Positions 3,608 to 28,478 of a stretch of 64,000 nt of DNA are shown one piece after another (the stretch's first letter is position 1; every line of letters starts with the position of its first letter). This DNA comes from a virus (taxonomy: Duplodnaviria > Heunggongvirae > Uroviricota > Caudoviricetes): the IMG/VR virus record IMGVR_UViG_2703718775_000013; one strand, written 5' to 3'. The notes under the pieces were generated by a model. The model saw only the letters and a list, made by a program, of their open reading frames with translations, ran no database searches and had not been told where the DNA came from. The position numbers and the translations under genes were made by a program.

Positions 3608-4272
3608 ACTTGCCGGGTACGTCTCCGGCGAGGGCTTCCACCTCCGTATGCTTTTCGGCGCACCGCGCCCTGGCTGCAATTCGGTAACAGGGGATGCATA
3701 ACCCTGGCTTCCAGCGTGATTAGCGCCTTCAGCATGACGGGATATACCCGTAAATTCGTGGAACTGTACCCAAAGTGCTGTTAAGCACCGCTGTTACGCT
3801 GAAAAGAAAACGCAACAGGAAAGGACGCTGACCAACAGATGGCCCCTTCTCGTTCATCTGGTTAATCACACCAGCGCCCTTACCTGTTGTGCCTCCCCGT
3901 TCCCTAATACACAGACGGGGACACTCTGCGGTCGATTTTTTGACGGGGGACGACTCATACCCCATGGCATCTGGCTTCTTAGGCCGCTACCATCATCAGA
4001 TCATCGTTTGCATTTACTTTAATGGTCAGTTTCTAAACCGCCGCAAAGTCGCTAACCATGACGAAAACCCTGAAAAAAACGCCCACCCGAAGATGGGCAA
4101 ACTGGACGCTCGTAACGCACTTCGGCGTTGCCACTTAGGCGCATGGTCAACCTGGCAACTCGGTGGTTTGTCTGGGAGGACTAGGCCCAGCCATGCTTAC
4201 CGCCGCGCCTGTCGCGGCTAACAGCTAAATCGCTCTATAAATCACGATTCATTGAGGTAATATTACACTAAT

Positions 4273-4289
4273 AAATTTATTAGAGCAAT
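4273..4289. promoter_or_regulatory. C1 repressor operator-like site (perfect match to reverse complement of ATTGCTCTAATAAATTT)
   Basis: AAATTTATTAGAGCAAT read directly; sits at the head of the minus-strand leader/tRNA/ban operon, analogous to the P1 ban-operon operator. Confidence 0.7.
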
Positions 4290-8223: not shown

Positions 8224-8572
8224 GTTGTAACCCTTGAATATCAACCACAGAAAGCTCGTCTTTGTAGAAAAAGGCCAGGTTGTGGCACCCCCTCGTTTGA
8301 GCGTATGAGCTGGGACCAATTTCGTTCTTCCAGACAAATGGCTTCAAATCCGTACGGCGAAGCATAAAAACGCGATTTATTCCGCTCTGATTCCCAATGA
8401 GGCAAAAGCCTTCTTTCACCTTGATAGCCTGCAAGTTGTCGAGTTCACCGCTGGTTACACGGCTATCGAACTCTTTGCGGCTTATTAGCTCCATCTGCAT
8501 CTGACGACTCCAAACAAATGCCCATTGAAGGGCGATGGCTGAATGGTACCGAAAATACGACATAAAAAACAA
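8216..8572 (-). CDS. hypothetical protein (first gene of rdgC-dmt operon)
   Basis: 118-aa ORF, stop overlaps rdgC start (translational coupling); start may be ATG at 8572 or 8563. Confidence 0.5.
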
Positions 8573-8588
8573 TATTTATTAGAGCAAT
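8572..8588. promoter_or_regulatory. C1 operator-like site (16/17 match)
   Basis: ATATTTATTAGAGCAAT at the 5' end of the minus-strand operon and in the divergent intergenic region. Confidence 0.6.
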
Positions 8589-19927: not shown

Positions 19928-20509
19928 ATGGCACCTATACCTTATGGGGTTTACAGCCAGGCTGACGGTGTATCGCCATTTCTGAAAGTTACTTTAACGA
20001 ACTCTCAGTACCAGGTTACCGGATATATCAGCCAGGGGGCAGCAATGAACATGGCCCAGAATTGGGAAGCGCCGTTTACCGGTATGTCCATGGGGTCTGT
20101 TGCTGGTGCCTTCAGTGGTTTTGCGCAGGTTGGTACTGAAACAACGTCGGTGGCCCGTTGGAACAGCTTAATGGTTTGGGAGGGGGGAACACCGCCAACT
20201 TTCACGCTGCCAGTAACTTTCATCGCTTTGTTTGATCCATTCACGGAGGTTTCAGGAGCTATCGCCGCATTGTCAGCGATGATTAGCCCGGAACTTAAAG
20301 ATGCCAGTATTGGTGGTCGAATCCCGGAGCGTGTGACGCTAAACATTGGTCGCCAGATCAACATCATTGATGTCGCTATCCAGGACATAAGTTTCGATCT
20401 CGATGCGCCCAGGGACAGCAATGGGCATTTCCTGAAAAACACCGTCAACCTCCAGTTGACCGGTTCTTCGATATATAACAGCTCCGATATTGTTCGGGCG
20501 TTCCAGTAA
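19928..20509 (+). CDS. tail tube protein candidate (P1 gp21-like, about 21 kDa)
   Basis: 193-aa ORF following sheath candidate; size and synteny only. Confidence 0.4.
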   Translation: MAPIPYGVYSQADGVSPFLKVTLTNSQYQVTGYISQGAAMNMAQNWEAPFTGMSMGSVAGAFSGFAQVGTETTSVARWNSLMVWEGGTPPTFTLPVTFIALFDPFTEVSGAIAALSAMISPELKDASIGGRIPERVTLNIGRQINIIDVAIQDISFDLDAPRDSNGHFLKNTVNLQLTGSSIYNSSDIVRAFQ

Positions 20510-21049: not shown

Positions 21050-21073
21050 AAAGCTCCTTCGGGAGCTTTTTTT
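21050..21073 (+). terminator. rho-independent terminator
   Basis: AAGCTCCTTCGGGAGCTT hairpin followed by TTTTTTT. Confidence 0.75.
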
Positions 21074-21114
21074 GTGCTTAAATTATGCTGGTATAGCGAA
21101 ATTTTGAGCATATT

Positions 21115-21411
21115 ATGGAAATTGATTTTTCATACTCTCCTGAAACGATAGAACGAAGCTTCGAAATAATTGGATGCAAAACTATTTCAGAGGAGCATTA
21201 TTGGATTCTCTATGATGCCAATACATGGTTATGTGCCTTAGCAGAATGTCGGTCATCGTTATGTGCAGGGGAGGGAGGACTTCGACATAAGGTGCTGGCT
21301 ACACTTGAAGTGAACACGTTACGATATTGGTGTGTCGAAATACTTAGGAATAACAAAGAATTACATTTATTATTGCTGAATAAATGTGCACCTCTGCGCA
21401 GAAAAGCATAA
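21115..21411 (+). CDS. small Cys-rich hypothetical protein
   Basis: 98-aa ORF in AT-rich DNA, followed by hairpin plus T-run at 21539-21579. Confidence 0.4.
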   Translation: MEIDFSYSPETIERSFEIIGCKTISEEHYWILYDANTWLCALAECRSSLCAGEGGLRHKVLATLEVNTLRYWCVEILRNNKELHLLLLNKCAPLRRKA

Positions 21412-21577
21412 GAAAACCCAACAGCCATACTGGAATTATCAGAAGAATATGTGCGGAAAGTTATAGCTAGCTATTGAAAAGCTAAAGTAGATCGGTTAGA
21501 TTTGCCTTACTCATCTACCATGTGTAGAAAGAGCGATCGAACCCGATACATAGCAATATGTGTCGGGTTCAGCTTTT

Positions 21578-22042
21578 TTATGTCCCAAGCGCTCTTTTTC
21601 TGCTTTGTTTGAGTGTTCTGATTTTACTGTTATAGGTTACAACATAGGCTGTTTTAAGAAGCCAATAGTCTCTACGTGCGGATAGCACAACAACGTAGTT
21701 TTCACACTCGTTCCAGATTACCCATTCTTCAGTTGGTCCTCGTCTTTCAGACCAACATGATATATCGGAATGGTTATAATTCCTTATCATATGCGCGATC
21801 CAGCGGATCCGCTTACACCGTTCAAGATCAGGTATTCGTTCTTCTTCTATTTTTCCCTCTGATACTAAATGCCAAAATCCGAACTCTTTCCCATCATATT
21901 CCGGTGAATAACGTAATCGAACAGGGAGACCCTTAAACGTTATATTAGAGATTAAAATATCTTCTCTAACAACATCATATACATCGTCTATATACTCTTG
22001 CCAACTTCCATTGAAGTACAATAAATCTGGCATTTGAAGCAT
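21578..22042 (-). CDS. hypothetical protein, translationally coupled partner of upstream DUF3800-like gene
   Basis: ATG at 22042 overlaps upstream stop (TGATG); ORF track alternative start 22057; AT-rich codon usage. Confidence 0.55.
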   Translation of the reverse strand: MLQMPDLLYFNGSWQEYIDDVYDVVREDILISNITFKGLPVRLRYSPEYDGKEFGFWHLVSEGKIEEERIPDLERCKRIRWIAHMIRNYNHSDISCWSERRGPTEEWVIWNECENYVVVLSARRDYWLLKTAYVVTYNSKIRTLKQSRKRALGT

Positions 22043-22746
22043 CAGCGAGCCTCCCACACGAAAATATTAAATTTACTTTCTGTTGGAAGAGTGCTTTTTA
22101 GTAACTCCCTGTTTGTATGTGATTTTATCCTGTTTATGACTTGGATTTTTCCCGCGTTGCTATTCATTCCTCGATGAACGTAGCCTAACGCACCAATGAA
22201 AAGATCCGTTAGCTGCAATTGTTGCACTTCATGAGATCGTATATGTTGAATTCTGTTTATCGACTCATGATTGTAATCATAGCGATCATTGTGAAGAACT
22301 CCTCTTAATTTCTCAATTTTTTCAATACCTAAAGTATCTTTTATATCTAGGTAGATATTGTATGTGTTGTTACTTTCTATTATGTTTTTTAAGACATAAA
22401 AAAACATCTTATAATAGAAAGTATTATGATCTTGATGGAATCGAGCATGGTCCAGTTGCTCTTTATCAGGAACAACAACACCTCTAAAGCGCAATGCTGG
22501 GTTGCTGAAGAAGTAATCTACGACCTCTAAGTAAAATTCAACTTTGGACGCAGATACTTTAGTCCACTTGATTTCGAAATCAGGTTTTAAATTGTGTTTT
22601 AATTTTAATCCCTTGATGTCTCTAGCAATTTTTTTTGTGATAGTGCCAGGACACCAAAGCGCACCCAATACCATGACTTTATTATGATCATTTAGTAGGT
22701 GACAGGATTCATCGCAGAATACATTAAATGTTCTTCGGTTCAACAT
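22042..22746 (-). CDS. DUF3800-like hypothetical protein
   Basis: 234 aa; N-terminal FNVFCDESCHLL and C-terminal QLQLTDLFIGALGYV resemble my recollection of DUF3800 family conserved blocks; GGAG SD 6 nt before ATG; low GC. Confidence 0.55.
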   Translation of the reverse strand: MLNRRTFNVFCDESCHLLNDHNKVMVLGALWCPGTITKKIARDIKGLKLKHNLKPDFEIKWTKVSASKVEFYLEVVDYFFSNPALRFRGVVVPDKEQLDHARFHQDHNTFYYKMFFYVLKNIIESNNTYNIYLDIKDTLGIEKIEKLRGVLHNDRYDYNHESINRIQHIRSHEVQQLQLTDLFIGALGYVHRGMNSNAGKIQVINRIKSHTNRELLKSTLPTESKFNIFVWEAR

Positions 22747-22894
22747 GTTAACTCCACTTATTGTTAGGTAGAATTGTCCGTTAGTTGTTTATTAATTGCA
22801 ATAATTGGACGTTCTGATTTGCTAACTACGTCATCTTACCAGGACGCCTATGAGTTTTCCTCATGGCAAACTAGAGGTGTTGAAAGTATGCATG

Positions 22895-22910
22895 GTTATA
22901 ATTAGAGCAA
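22895..22910. promoter_or_regulatory. C1 operator-like site (core ATTAGAGCAAT)
   Basis: Core 11/11 match, flank diverged; lies between repL stop and the AT-rich cassette, overlapping a candidate -10 (TAATTAT) on the minus strand. Confidence 0.45.
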
Positions 22911-22914
22911 TCTA

Positions 22915-24659: not shown

Positions 24660-24676
24660 AAATTTATTAGAGCAAA
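24660..24676. promoter_or_regulatory. C1 operator-like site upstream of kilA-repL (16/17 match)
   Basis: AAATTTATTAGAGCAAA about 70 bp upstream of kilA start. Confidence 0.65.
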
Positions 24677-26039: not shown

Positions 26040-26300
26040 ATAAACAACCTGCGACCCGCTGCTAAACAGGTGGCAGGACGTGACGGGGTTAGCAGACTGG
26101 CACTTACGAAACCAGCAGGCCGAAGCCTCCCCATCACGCCCCACCATAATTCGGGCGTAACGTGGTTTACGGACACAAAAATACCGCAATATCGGAAATC
26201 TGCGGTTGTCCGCGTAAGTATTCAGGCTGCTAAACCCGGTCGCAGAATTTGCTACGACGGCGGAACTATAAGCCTGAACGATTAAAAGGTCAATATGATG
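26040..26300 (-). ncRNA. c4-like antisense RNA region of immI (boundaries approximate)
   Basis: Leader between the operator and icd contains CTGCTAAAC twice (26059, 26226) and the complementary GTTAGCAG (26089) on the same transcript, the kind of antisense/target pairs described for P1 c4. Confidence 0.3.
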
Positions 26301-26331
26301 CGAAAAGATAGCATTCGCGACTTAAAAATAC

Positions 26332-26348
26332 AAATTTATTAGAGCATT
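26332..26348. promoter_or_regulatory. C1 operator-like site at immI promoter (16/17 match)
   Basis: AAATTTATTAGAGCATT at the upstream end of the minus-strand immI leader. Confidence 0.65.
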
Positions 26349-26444
26349 GCTTGTTTAATAAATGCACAATTGGATCTAATAACCTCTTTTTTTTAAAGGC
26401 GAAAATATGTACCCTAAATGAGTTATAAGGCAGGTGAGGTTATA

Positions 26445-26576
26445 ATGAGAAAACTATTACTACCGTTATTATTTATGGCCGGGACTGTTAATGCAGCATC
26501 AAGCGTGAAGGAGATTTGTACCGATTATACGAAATACCTTGGGCACGTTTACGCCTTTGCGATCAATGACTATTAA
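26445..26576 (+). CDS. small secreted peptide precursor (43 aa, signal peptide, about 23-aa mature product)
   Basis: ATG at 26445 with GGTGAGG SD; MRKLLLPLLFMAGTVNA-ASSVKEICTDYTKYLGHVYAFAINDY; not in ORF track (below 60 aa). Confidence 0.45.
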   Translation: MRKLLLPLLFMAGTVNAASSVKEICTDYTKYLGHVYAFAINDY

Positions 26577-26597
26577 TCCATGCGTAGGAGTGGATTT

Positions 26598-26915
26598 ATG
26601 CTGATTCGTTTGTTTTTAGTGCTTTCCTTTTTAACATTTAATGTTTTTGCTGATGAAGTTGACTTTTCGAAGGTAGATTGCAATTCAGTGGAAACAAGAA
26701 AAGCTCTTATTGAAGAATATAACGAAATATTATCGTTATATGGAATAACAGTGGTTGATTCTTATAATCAAAAAACTATTCAGAAAGGAATAAATAAACT
26801 GGTTTGTTATGGGATTTACCAATATTCAGATGGCTCTTCGGAGTATGTTATTTATAAAGCATACCCAAATAGTCTTGGTGAATTGATTAGTGAGTTTAAA
26901 CCGATTAATGAGTGA
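26598..26915 (+). CDS. secreted hypothetical protein (signal peptide, two Cys)
   Basis: ATG at 26598 with AGGAG SD; MLIRLFLVLSFLTFNVFA-DEV...; GC about 30 percent. Confidence 0.6.
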   Translation: MLIRLFLVLSFLTFNVFADEVDFSKVDCNSVETRKALIEEYNEILSLYGITVVDSYNQKTIQKGINKLVCYGIYQYSDGSSEYVIYKAYPNSLGELISEFKPINE

Positions 26916-26922
26916 ATGGAAA

Positions 26923-27702
26923 ATGAAATTATTTAATGTAATAACATTTTGTTGTGCTATTTTTGCTGGAAGCGCGATAGCTGATAATAAATTGCCAGAT
27001 TGGCTTTCTACTTCAAAAAAAGATTATGATTTAGTAAGGGTGTTCTATTTGTCTGGATTTGCCTCGAAAGCAATGAATAATCAATTTGGTTATCATTTTC
27101 CATCTGAGTTGGTTAATGATTTTAAAGATAATGAATTTGCCGCTCAGGAAAAATGGAATAAAATTTCAATTGTATATGGTGAAATAAAATCCATAAGAAT
27201 GGTGAATAATGAACCAATTGTAGAGTTATTTACTCCAGGGGAAAATGCAACGCCACTAAATTATATCAAATTGAAAGTGTTGGATTCAAAACAAAACTCT
27301 CTGTTAAAACTAAAAAAAGGGGATGATATATATGCAGTGTGCTCCGGTGCTAATTTTAGTTTAGTGCCAATTCTGAGCAACTGCACTCCAGCAACTGACG
27401 TCATTGATGCTGCACTCTCTTTTTCTGGTGAATATATGTTCCCTGCTTTTGATTCTTTTTCACCTACTAAGCAAAACGTCAAATATATATTCACAAATCA
27501 AGATCCTGTTCAGATGATGAATTTTATAGGGTACCTATCCTTAGTCGATACAACGAAGGATAAGAATAAAATGGATATGGTTCGTAAGTGTACGCCTTGG
27601 AAGCCGGAATGTTCACAACAATTCGTTGATGTAATGGAAGGATTTGATAACATCATGTATAAATATGAGAGGGAATTTAAAAATTACATAGAATTAAAAT
27701 AG
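26923..27702 (+). CDS. secreted hypothetical protein (signal peptide), candidate superinfection-exclusion-type function
   Basis: MKLFNVITFCCAIFAGSAIA-DNK...; 259 aa; AT-rich; followed by terminator. Confidence 0.6.
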   Translation: MKLFNVITFCCAIFAGSAIADNKLPDWLSTSKKDYDLVRVFYLSGFASKAMNNQFGYHFPSELVNDFKDNEFAAQEKWNKISIVYGEIKSIRMVNNEPIVELFTPGENATPLNYIKLKVLDSKQNSLLKLKKGDDIYAVCSGANFSLVPILSNCTPATDVIDAALSFSGEYMFPAFDSFSPTKQNVKYIFTNQDPVQMMNFIGYLSLVDTTKDKNKMDMVRKCTPWKPECSQQFVDVMEGFDNIMYKYEREFKNYIELK

Positions 27703-27735
27703 TATTTGAAATGATAGTCAATTTAAGTTTTAACA

Positions 27736-27766
27736 AAACGCCCATTAAAGGGCGTTTTATTGTTTT
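27736..27766 (+). terminator. rho-independent terminator
   Basis: AAACGCCCATTAAAGGGCGTTT hairpin then T-rich tract. Confidence 0.7.
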
Positions 27767-27887
27767 ACTCAAAACAATCTGATTATGTGATAACCATATC
27801 ATATTCCTCATTCCACCTACACTGATTACCCCCCAGACAACAACATTCCTACTCAATGAACAAATGACTACTCGTAGAATCGGTTAA

Positions 27888-28478
<591 letters not shown>

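Follow-up and report, generated by a model that had tools for sequence, protein, structure and literature searches.

The rlfA-rlfB cassette of phage P1 is an optional, acquired gene pair that matches a candidate defense system

Two small minus-strand genes lie directly downstream of the repL gene in a 64,000-nucleotide stretch of Caudoviricetes DNA (IMG/VR record IMGVR_UViG_2703718775_000013; this whole stretch is referred to below as the window). Their position next to a lytic replication gene raises the question of whether they serve phage replication or are cargo of another kind. An initial annotation, made from the letters of the sequence, left both answers open: the genes would be either the poorly characterized, replication-linked genes that follow repL in phage P1, or an acquired defense, anti-defense or toxin-type module. 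Here, we identify the gene pair, ask how widely and in which contexts it occurs, and weigh the functions that it may have.

Results

The cassette is rlfA-rlfB of phage P1

The 4.1 kb around the cassette are 97.4% identical at the DNA level to P1 (NC_005856/AF234172; 100% coverage), 97.7% identical to P7 and 98.9% identical to JL22. The identity to P1 spans bplB-pmgF-rlfB-rlfA-repL-kilA in the same gene order, and the P1 feature table agrees. By DNA identity and P1 annotation, the cassette is rlfA-rlfB, an annotated feature of a classical phage, and the proposed correspondence with the poorly characterized genes after repL in P1 was therefore correct. The P1 genes (rapA and rapB in P7) have the same neighbors (bplB, pmgF, repL and kilA), the same one-base stop/start overlap and the same operator, Orlf, as those of the window. 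We found no substantive difference between the two cassettes; the P1-like element of the window is nearest to JL22 and NZ_CP069679, not to P1 itself. In the P1 record (AF234172), rlfA and rlfB are annotated as "possibly associated with lytic replication".

The open reading frame (ORF) coordinates and the sequence bear out two coupled minus-strand genes of 234 and 154 amino acids, in which the TGA stop of rlfA and the ATG of rlfB have one base in common (TGATG). The GGGAGG motif inside the 3' end of rlfA (Table 1) is read as the Shine-Dalgarno sequence of rlfB and points to translational coupling of the two genes. The initial annotation had placed the pair between the terminator of the tail tube operon and repL. 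The position is right, but the interval from the bplB terminator to the cassette also contains pmgF.

Table 1. Features of the rlfA-rlfB locus (window coordinates) and of the RlfA fusion (coordinates within the respective homologous loci)
Feature	Coordinates	Strand	Description
rlfA (P7 rapA)	22042..22746	-	234-aa DUF3800 protein; predicted RNase H2-like metal-dependent nuclease
rlfB (P7 rapB)	21578..22042	-	154-aa partner (from ATG); no Pfam family; weak RelE/colicin D-like fold
GGGAGG Shine-Dalgarno of rlfB	22050..22055	-	Within the rlfA 3' end, 7 nt 5' of the rlfB ATG; read from sequence
C1 operator Orlf (former Op55)	22895..22911	-	17-mer ATTGCTCTAATTATAAC; perfect 11-nt core, degenerate 3' half
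PrlfA, weak sigma-70 promoter	22773..22801	-	TTGCAA / GACAAT; predicted in AF234172, annotation transferred
Variable low-GC cargo slot	21073..22900		From the bplB terminator (21050-21069) to the operator core; holds pmgF, rlfB and rlfA; megablast break points in 680 P1-like plasmids
pmgF	21115..21411	+	98-aa ORF, opposite strand, same low-GC slot as rlfA-rlfB
Hairpin, 14 bp	21539..21570		Between convergent pmgF and rlfB; T-run on + strand, weaker on - strand; likely terminator 3' of rlfB
RlfA-methyltransferase fusion	L074 4440-9953; L184 3321-7988; probably L055 6818-9952		RlfA-type domain at the C-terminus of a methyltransferase

The cassette is optional cargo of a variable slot

The slot that holds the cassette (~1.8 kb) has a GC content of 0.37, compared with a mean of 0.475 (sd 0.039) for the window, and only 1.4% of the equal-sized segments have a GC content as low. 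The GC content at third codon positions is also lower in the cassette (0.31-0.34) than in bplB, repL and kilA (0.43-0.51), so the low GC content reported initially for the cassette relative to the flanking backbone is real. The region rlfA-rlfB-pmgF has been published as highly variable and low in GC (variable region 5 in PMC9603915; PMC6906374).

We then asked how often the slot is occupied by the same genes. At least 80% of the bplB-repL interval was covered in 98 of the 680 PLSDB plasmids that match that interval. The cassette alone was found in 101 PLSDB plasmids and in 121 out of 5426 complete E. coli genomes, nearly always on plasmids. Most other P1-like elements have a Hok/Gef toxin gene (hok/mok) in the same slot, the SJ46-type elements have an Ail/Lom outer-membrane protein, and still others have unknown ORFs. 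Because of its low GC content, its occurrence in only ~15% of the P1-like plasmids and the presence of other cargo in the slot elsewhere, rlfA-rlfB is an acquired, optional cassette and not a part of the core genes. We also considered the slot as a dedicated defense hotspot and rejected this, as none of the other cargo (Hok/Gef, Ail/Lom, unknown ORFs) has a PADLOC match.

The pair is also unnecessary for P1 lytic replication. In a genome-wide CRISPR interference (CRISPRi) screen, rlfA, rlfB and pmgF were nonessential in P1 (PMC10695390), and the lytic-replicon fragment of P1-derived cloning vectors stops 4 nt short of rlfA (P1 record annotation). Given this dispensability and the patchy occurrence, the name "replication-linked" rests on position only.

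RlfA and RlfB form a conserved pair that matches PDC-M04

Both proteins matched the models of one PADLOC candidate system, RlfA to PDC-M04A (2.2e-95) and RlfB to PDC-M04B (7.8e-52), and the genes are adjacent, in A-then-B order and overlap by 1 nt. By these matches the cassette is PDC-M04, itself a predicted defense system. The PDC systems are candidates from a guilt-by-embedding approach, which collects genes nested in BREX, DISARM or type I restriction-modification (R-M) operons (Payne et al. 2024 preprint, 10.1101/2024.01.29.577857). The copy in P1 stands by itself, on a phage-plasmid and behind a repressor operator.

To follow the pair beyond P1, we searched for RlfB relatives in one genome per species and took the best 80 loci for synteny. 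Relatives occur in 411 species of the Proteobacteria, Planctomycetota, Chloroflexota, Cyanobacteria, Saccharibacteria, Bacteroidota and other phyla. In all of the 80 best loci whose contig extends far enough, the gene directly 5' of rlfB, on its strand, encodes RlfA, and in 75 of the 80 both proteins are full-length. With RlfA as the bait in IMG/VR viral contigs, a full adjacent RlfB was present in 69 out of 77 loci. The rlfA stop and the rlfB start overlap or are at most 3 nt apart in 66 out of 77 related loci. RlfA and RlfB therefore keep a strict synteny and translational coupling in many bacterial phyla.

Decay of the pair was also seen. RlfB is broken or truncated beside an intact RlfA in ~9-10 loci, some of them P1-like contigs (L002-L004 of Methylomonas, L096 of E. 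coli, L101/L103 and five other IMG/VR loci), compared with 2 for the reverse, counts that are small and ascertainment-biased.

The embedding in type I R-M operons was reproduced independently. Type I R-M genes stand on both sides of the pair in 11 of the 40 loci with at least 4 kb on each side (roughly a quarter). For instance, the gene order is hsdS-rlfA-rlfB-hsdR in Methylomonas, hsdMS-RT-rlfA-rlfB-hsdR-x-pAgo in Algoriphagus (RT, reverse transcriptase) and hsdR-MazE/PIN-rlfA-rlfB-hsdM-hsdS in Anaerolineales. This nesting between hsd genes resembles that of the PrrC-type abortive-infection nucleases, which are cited as the paradigm. The proteins are unrelated to PrrC, however, rlfA-rlfB also occurs alone on mobile elements, and we found no evidence that the pair is under the control of the R-M complex.

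The mobile elements are diverse. The pair adjoins the integrase of a lambdoid prophage in Enterobacter and that of an integrative and conjugative element (ICE) at guaA in E. coli, and it lies in the nin-like region of a Serratia prophage. Together with the P1-like plasmids and a P4-like satellite, these loci show that phage-plasmids, lambdoid prophages, P4-like satellites and ICEs all carry rlfA-rlfB as cargo. In the loci L179-L181, from Citrobacter werkmanii and the satellite, the order is RhuM-rlfA-rlfB-SymE, and the pair is flanked by a RhuM-family gene and the gene for the toxin SymE. The satellite that carries this block has AlpA and a D5-type primase, which suggests that the block occupies a satellite cargo hotspot. 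RhuM corresponds to PDC-S05, a system that is reported to be protective in a 2026 paper.

One lineage has an RlfA-type domain joined to the C-terminal end of a giant DISARM-type methyltransferase (DrmMI-like / type IIG Eco57I family; 1556-1838 aa). The gene order is an SNF2 helicase (PADLOC DpdE/DrmD models), the DrmMI-like methyltransferase-RlfA and an intact RlfB, and one of these loci (L184) has two Cas13a genes nearby. Because the closest methyltransferase relatives are without the RlfA domain, the fusion is a rare appendage.

Taken with the low GC content, the ~15% occurrence and the replacement of the slot, the PADLOC match supports the acquired-module option of the initial annotation. 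Conservation as core genes in all P1-like phages with the composition of the backbone, or an absence of conserved domains, had been named as observations that would speak against the proposal; we looked for both and found neither.

The modeled fold of RlfA resembles a type 2 RNase H

The initial annotation had recognized the larger protein as DUF3800-like, and this was correct. RlfA matched the Pfam family DUF3800 (PF12686) over residues 8-189 with an E-value of 7.6e-14 and 53.1 bits, well above the cut-off of 21. Both motifs that define DUF3800 (PMC7736814) are present, the N-terminal DE motif (D12-E13, CDESCH) and the C-terminal QxxD (Q178-x-x-D181). In 74 RlfA homologues from many phyla, D12, E13, D134 and D181 are invariant, and so are H16, K60, D137, S171, Q178 and K200.

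The modeled structure of RlfA has an RNase H fold. In this model, strand 1 ends with D12 and E13, D134 follows strand 4, and the QxxD helix contains D181; by secondary-structure position, the four residues would be candidate equivalents of the catalytic tetrad of type 2 RNase H. We infer that RlfA probably adopts a type 2 RNase H fold and is active as a nuclease that depends on Mg2+. The invariant acidic residues and their placement agree with earlier work in which DUF3800 was modeled as RNase H2-like (PMC7736814, PMC10910872). RlfA had no RNase H match in Pfam and no meaningful sequence or profile match in the PDB; RNase HII and RNase H2A are only 7-13% identical to it, and RlfA has an extra C-terminal region.

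DUF3800 proteins have been linked to type VII retrons, to Cas12a2/a3 and to non-coding RNA (ncRNA) motifs (PMC7736814, PMC10910872, PMC13594972, PMC5737381). The DUF3800 proteins of type VII retrons and the TPR-DUF3800 proteins of Cas12a2/a3 loci have the Pfam domain, the DE and QxxD motifs and the RNase H2-like model in common with RlfA. They differ in their partners: RlfA is paired with the protein RlfB, whereas the retron, Cas12 and ncRNA systems come with a reverse transcriptase and multicopy single-stranded DNA (msDNA), Cas12 or an ncRNA. The third acidic position is D in RlfA, while a DEED signature is reported for the retron VII proteins. No Rfam DUF3800 motif or any other RNA was detected between positions 20500 and 24000 of the window at E-values up to 10, nor in eight related loci at the gathering score.

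RlfB is a small protein with a weak resemblance to RNase toxins

RlfB had been described as a partner without recognizable motifs, which needs qualification because the protein matches not only PDC-M04B (E 8e-52) but also PHROG 16230. Searches of Pfam (with the single sequence and with all 32 members of the alignment), of NCBIfam and of PDB sequences and profiles returned nothing. The family comprises ~1768 cluster representatives, nearly all of them stand-alone proteins of 150-180 aa, in which H58 is invariant and E66, R69, D72, R75 and R78 are nearly invariant.

The structural neighbors of RlfB include the RelE family, with HigB1 as the best Foldseek match (E 0.09, not significant). The likeness to the RelE/ParE-colicin D-CdiA-CT (BECR-type) RNase toxins covers approximately half of RlfB and is likewise not significant by Foldseek; in contrast to these toxins, RlfB has no sequence family membership and has an extra N-terminal part of ~50 aa. 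From this model, it is a reasonable guess that RlfB is a small protein of the RelE/colicin D type that binds RNA or acts as an RNase, with H58, E66, R69, R75 and R78 as its candidate active or binding site. Neither RlfA nor RlfB has a helix-turn-helix or ribbon-helix-helix domain in Pfam.

Some database names for this protein are at odds with these results. Many RlfB homologues (P0122, P0127, P0128, P0130 and P0136) and plasmid matches (H63 and H72) carry the NCBI name "oxidoreductase", which we rejected, as domain and family searches give no support to it. This name and the label "replication protein" of PHROG 16230 look like propagated annotation artefacts.

The junction of slot and backbone lies inside an annotated C1 operator

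The core of a C1 operator, noted initially upstream of the cassette, was confirmed. The 11-nt core ATTGCTCTAAT is perfect and lies at 22901-22911 on the minus strand, 3 nt after the repL stop; the window has 3 copies of it, compared with 0.04 expected. The P1 record annotates the site as "monovalent C1-controlled operator Orlf, former Op55". Compared with the 17-bp asymmetric consensus ATTGCTCTAATAAATTT, the site has 5 mismatches, all in its 3' half, and it is not among the matches with at most 3 mismatches. There are eight such matches in the window (0.32 expected), including those at 4262-4289 (an overlapping divergent pair), 8572-8588, 24660-24676 and 26332-26348; two of the eight are Op53 and Op51, which precede kilA and c4, respectively.

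In the hok-type P1-like elements (L088 and L090 were compared), the repL stop and ATTGCTCTAAT are kept and the alignment of the junction diverges at the next base, giving the operator variant ATTGCTCTAATCTGGAG. The operator is therefore split by the boundary between backbone and cassette, and its core is a part of the backbone and not of the cassette. SJ46 has no operator at that junction.

A plausible promoter overlapping the operator had also been proposed, and here the prediction failed, as a consensus scan found no sigma-70-like promoter overlapping it. The only promoter predicted for rlfA in the P1 record, PrlfA, is ~95 nt downstream of the operator and matches at 8 of 12 positions, which is under the threshold of our scan. 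No terminator-like site was predicted between repL and rlfA, so read-through from the C1-controlled kilA-repL promoter is plausible and would place rlfA-rlfB among the early lytic genes. Transcription may come from this promoter (Op53, 24660-24676), from the weak PrlfA or from both. The rlfA leader (22747-22914, minus strand) folds marginally better than shuffled sequences (z -2.0), with the Shine-Dalgarno sequence of rlfA paired in the last hairpin; this fold is not conserved in the other contexts.

Neighboring features

The third gene of the slot, pmgF, was considered as a third component of the system and rejected, because tblastn finds PmgF solely in P1-like loci and there are no family matches (none in Pfam, NCBIfam or PADLOC). 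Over its first 64 residues, PmgF has 41% identity to the beginning of an ORF of unrelated length (210 aa) in the same slot of Salmonella phage SJ46 (L089 1012-1197). A second strongly AT-rich block, at 26300-28000 (GC ~0.30), is the P1 simABC superimmunity region next to Oc4/Op51, which is another published variable low-GC region.

Discussion

We think it probable, if only just, that rlfA-rlfB is a mobile two-protein nuclease module of the defense or abortive-infection type that P1 carries as optional cargo. RlfA and RlfB would form a complex, one component of which would sense a nucleic acid that is specific to infection, such as an RNA-DNA hybrid or a structured RNA. Nuclease activity would then be released against the invader or against host RNA, and the pair would act as a defense or abortive-infection effector, either alone or as a backup of immunity based on DNA modification.

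Several observations weigh against this explanation. The other cargo of the same slot, Hok and Ail/Lom, is not specifically defensive. Expression only after C1 derepression would leave the lysogen unprotected, which is unusual for a prophage-borne defense. The catalytic equivalences of RlfA come from secondary-structure position and not from a residue-level superposition, and for RlfB the similarity in fold is weak, with a best Foldseek E-value of 0.09 and no profile match to Pfam or PDB sequences. RlfA is damaged beside an intact RlfB in two loci (L012 and L085), so RlfB alone may not be lethal. Our literature search found no experiment on defense, toxicity or nuclease activity of RlfA, RlfB or PDC-M04.

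The small, translationally coupled operon could also be a toxin-antitoxin system, in which RlfB would be a RelE/colicin D-like RNase toxin restrained by RlfA. Post-segregational killing, and not an action against phages, would then stabilize whichever element carries the pair, be it the P1 plasmid prophage, an R-M operon, another prophage or an ICE. The RelE-family structural neighbors of RlfB fit this explanation, and so does hok/mok, a classical post-segregational killer, in the same slot of most P1-like plasmids; the neighbors of the pair are often toxin-antitoxin genes (MazE/PIN, SymE, YdaS/YdaT). However, RlfA is no small DNA-binding antitoxin: it is an enzyme-like protein of 234 aa with an invariant acidic tetrad and ~45 near-invariant positions, and in some systems it is fused to a methyltransferase. 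P1 already has phd-doc. A broken RlfB beside an intact RlfA is commoner than the reverse, in line with this explanation, but the asymmetry is too small and biased to decide the matter, and the two loci with a damaged RlfA weigh against strong toxicity of RlfB. We regard addiction as unlikely. About as doubtful is a more far-reaching version of the nuclease idea, in which rlfA-rlfB would be a mechanistically new two-nuclease effector: an RNase H2-like protein would detect RNA-DNA hybrids or structured RNA specific to infection and license a colicin D/RelE-like RNase, and the slot, with its left junction inside a C1 operator, would gate any cassette by the lysis-lysogeny switch.

The P1 name implies a role in replication, which we consider very unlikely. 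An RNase H2-like RlfA could process R-loops or RNA primers that arise from transcription through oriL inside repL and thus improve lytic replication, with RlfB as an accessory. The genes are directly downstream of repL/oriL, co-directional with it and not separated from it by a predicted terminator, they were co-transcribed with repL during P1vir infection (10.64898/2025.12.28.696737), and both the C1 operator at the junction and the RNase H-type fold of RlfA are in line with such a role. Yet ~85% of the P1-like plasmids that keep repL are without rlfA-rlfB, the CRISPRi screen scored the genes as nonessential, the lytic replicon of the cloning vectors is without rlfA, and in many phyla the pair is found in R-M operons and next to integrases with no repL nearby. 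A further idea is that P1 has co-opted the pair for early-lytic offense or anti-defense, so that on C1 derepression it would degrade nucleic acids of the host or of competitors, such as retron msDNA, guide RNAs or other RNA-DNA hybrids. The operator at the start of the cassette, the plausible read-through from the C1-controlled P53 promoter and the links of DUF3800 to retron and CRISPR RNA biology are compatible with this idea, but most homologues are in chromosomal host defense operons, where anti-defense genes would be unexpected. Moreover, C1 control is not specific to the cassette, since the operator core is part of the backbone and persists next to unrelated cargo. We give this idea little credence, on a par with the role in replication.

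Part of what is reported here was already known, namely the P1 annotation, the published variable region, the "DUF3800" label in RefSeq and the PADLOC models. Modestly new are the explicit connection of P1 rlfAB with PDC-M04, the folds assigned to the proteins, the fusion to a methyltransferase and the position of the junction inside the operator.

The genes rlfA and rlfB have been on the P1 map since 2004 under a position-based name, "replication-linked function". Our evidence speaks for cargo that is optional, was acquired and is the same as a candidate defense system found across many phyla. If the two-nuclease effector were true, P1 would be a natural system in which to solve DUF3800, a domain that is also tied to type VII retrons, Cas12a2/a3 and eleven orphan ncRNA motifs. 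Because P1 and E. coli are easy to manipulate, the function of DUF3800 can be approached directly by experiments on the cassette; members of this large orphan family turn up repeatedly beside retrons, CRISPR effectors and structured RNAs that are unexplained.

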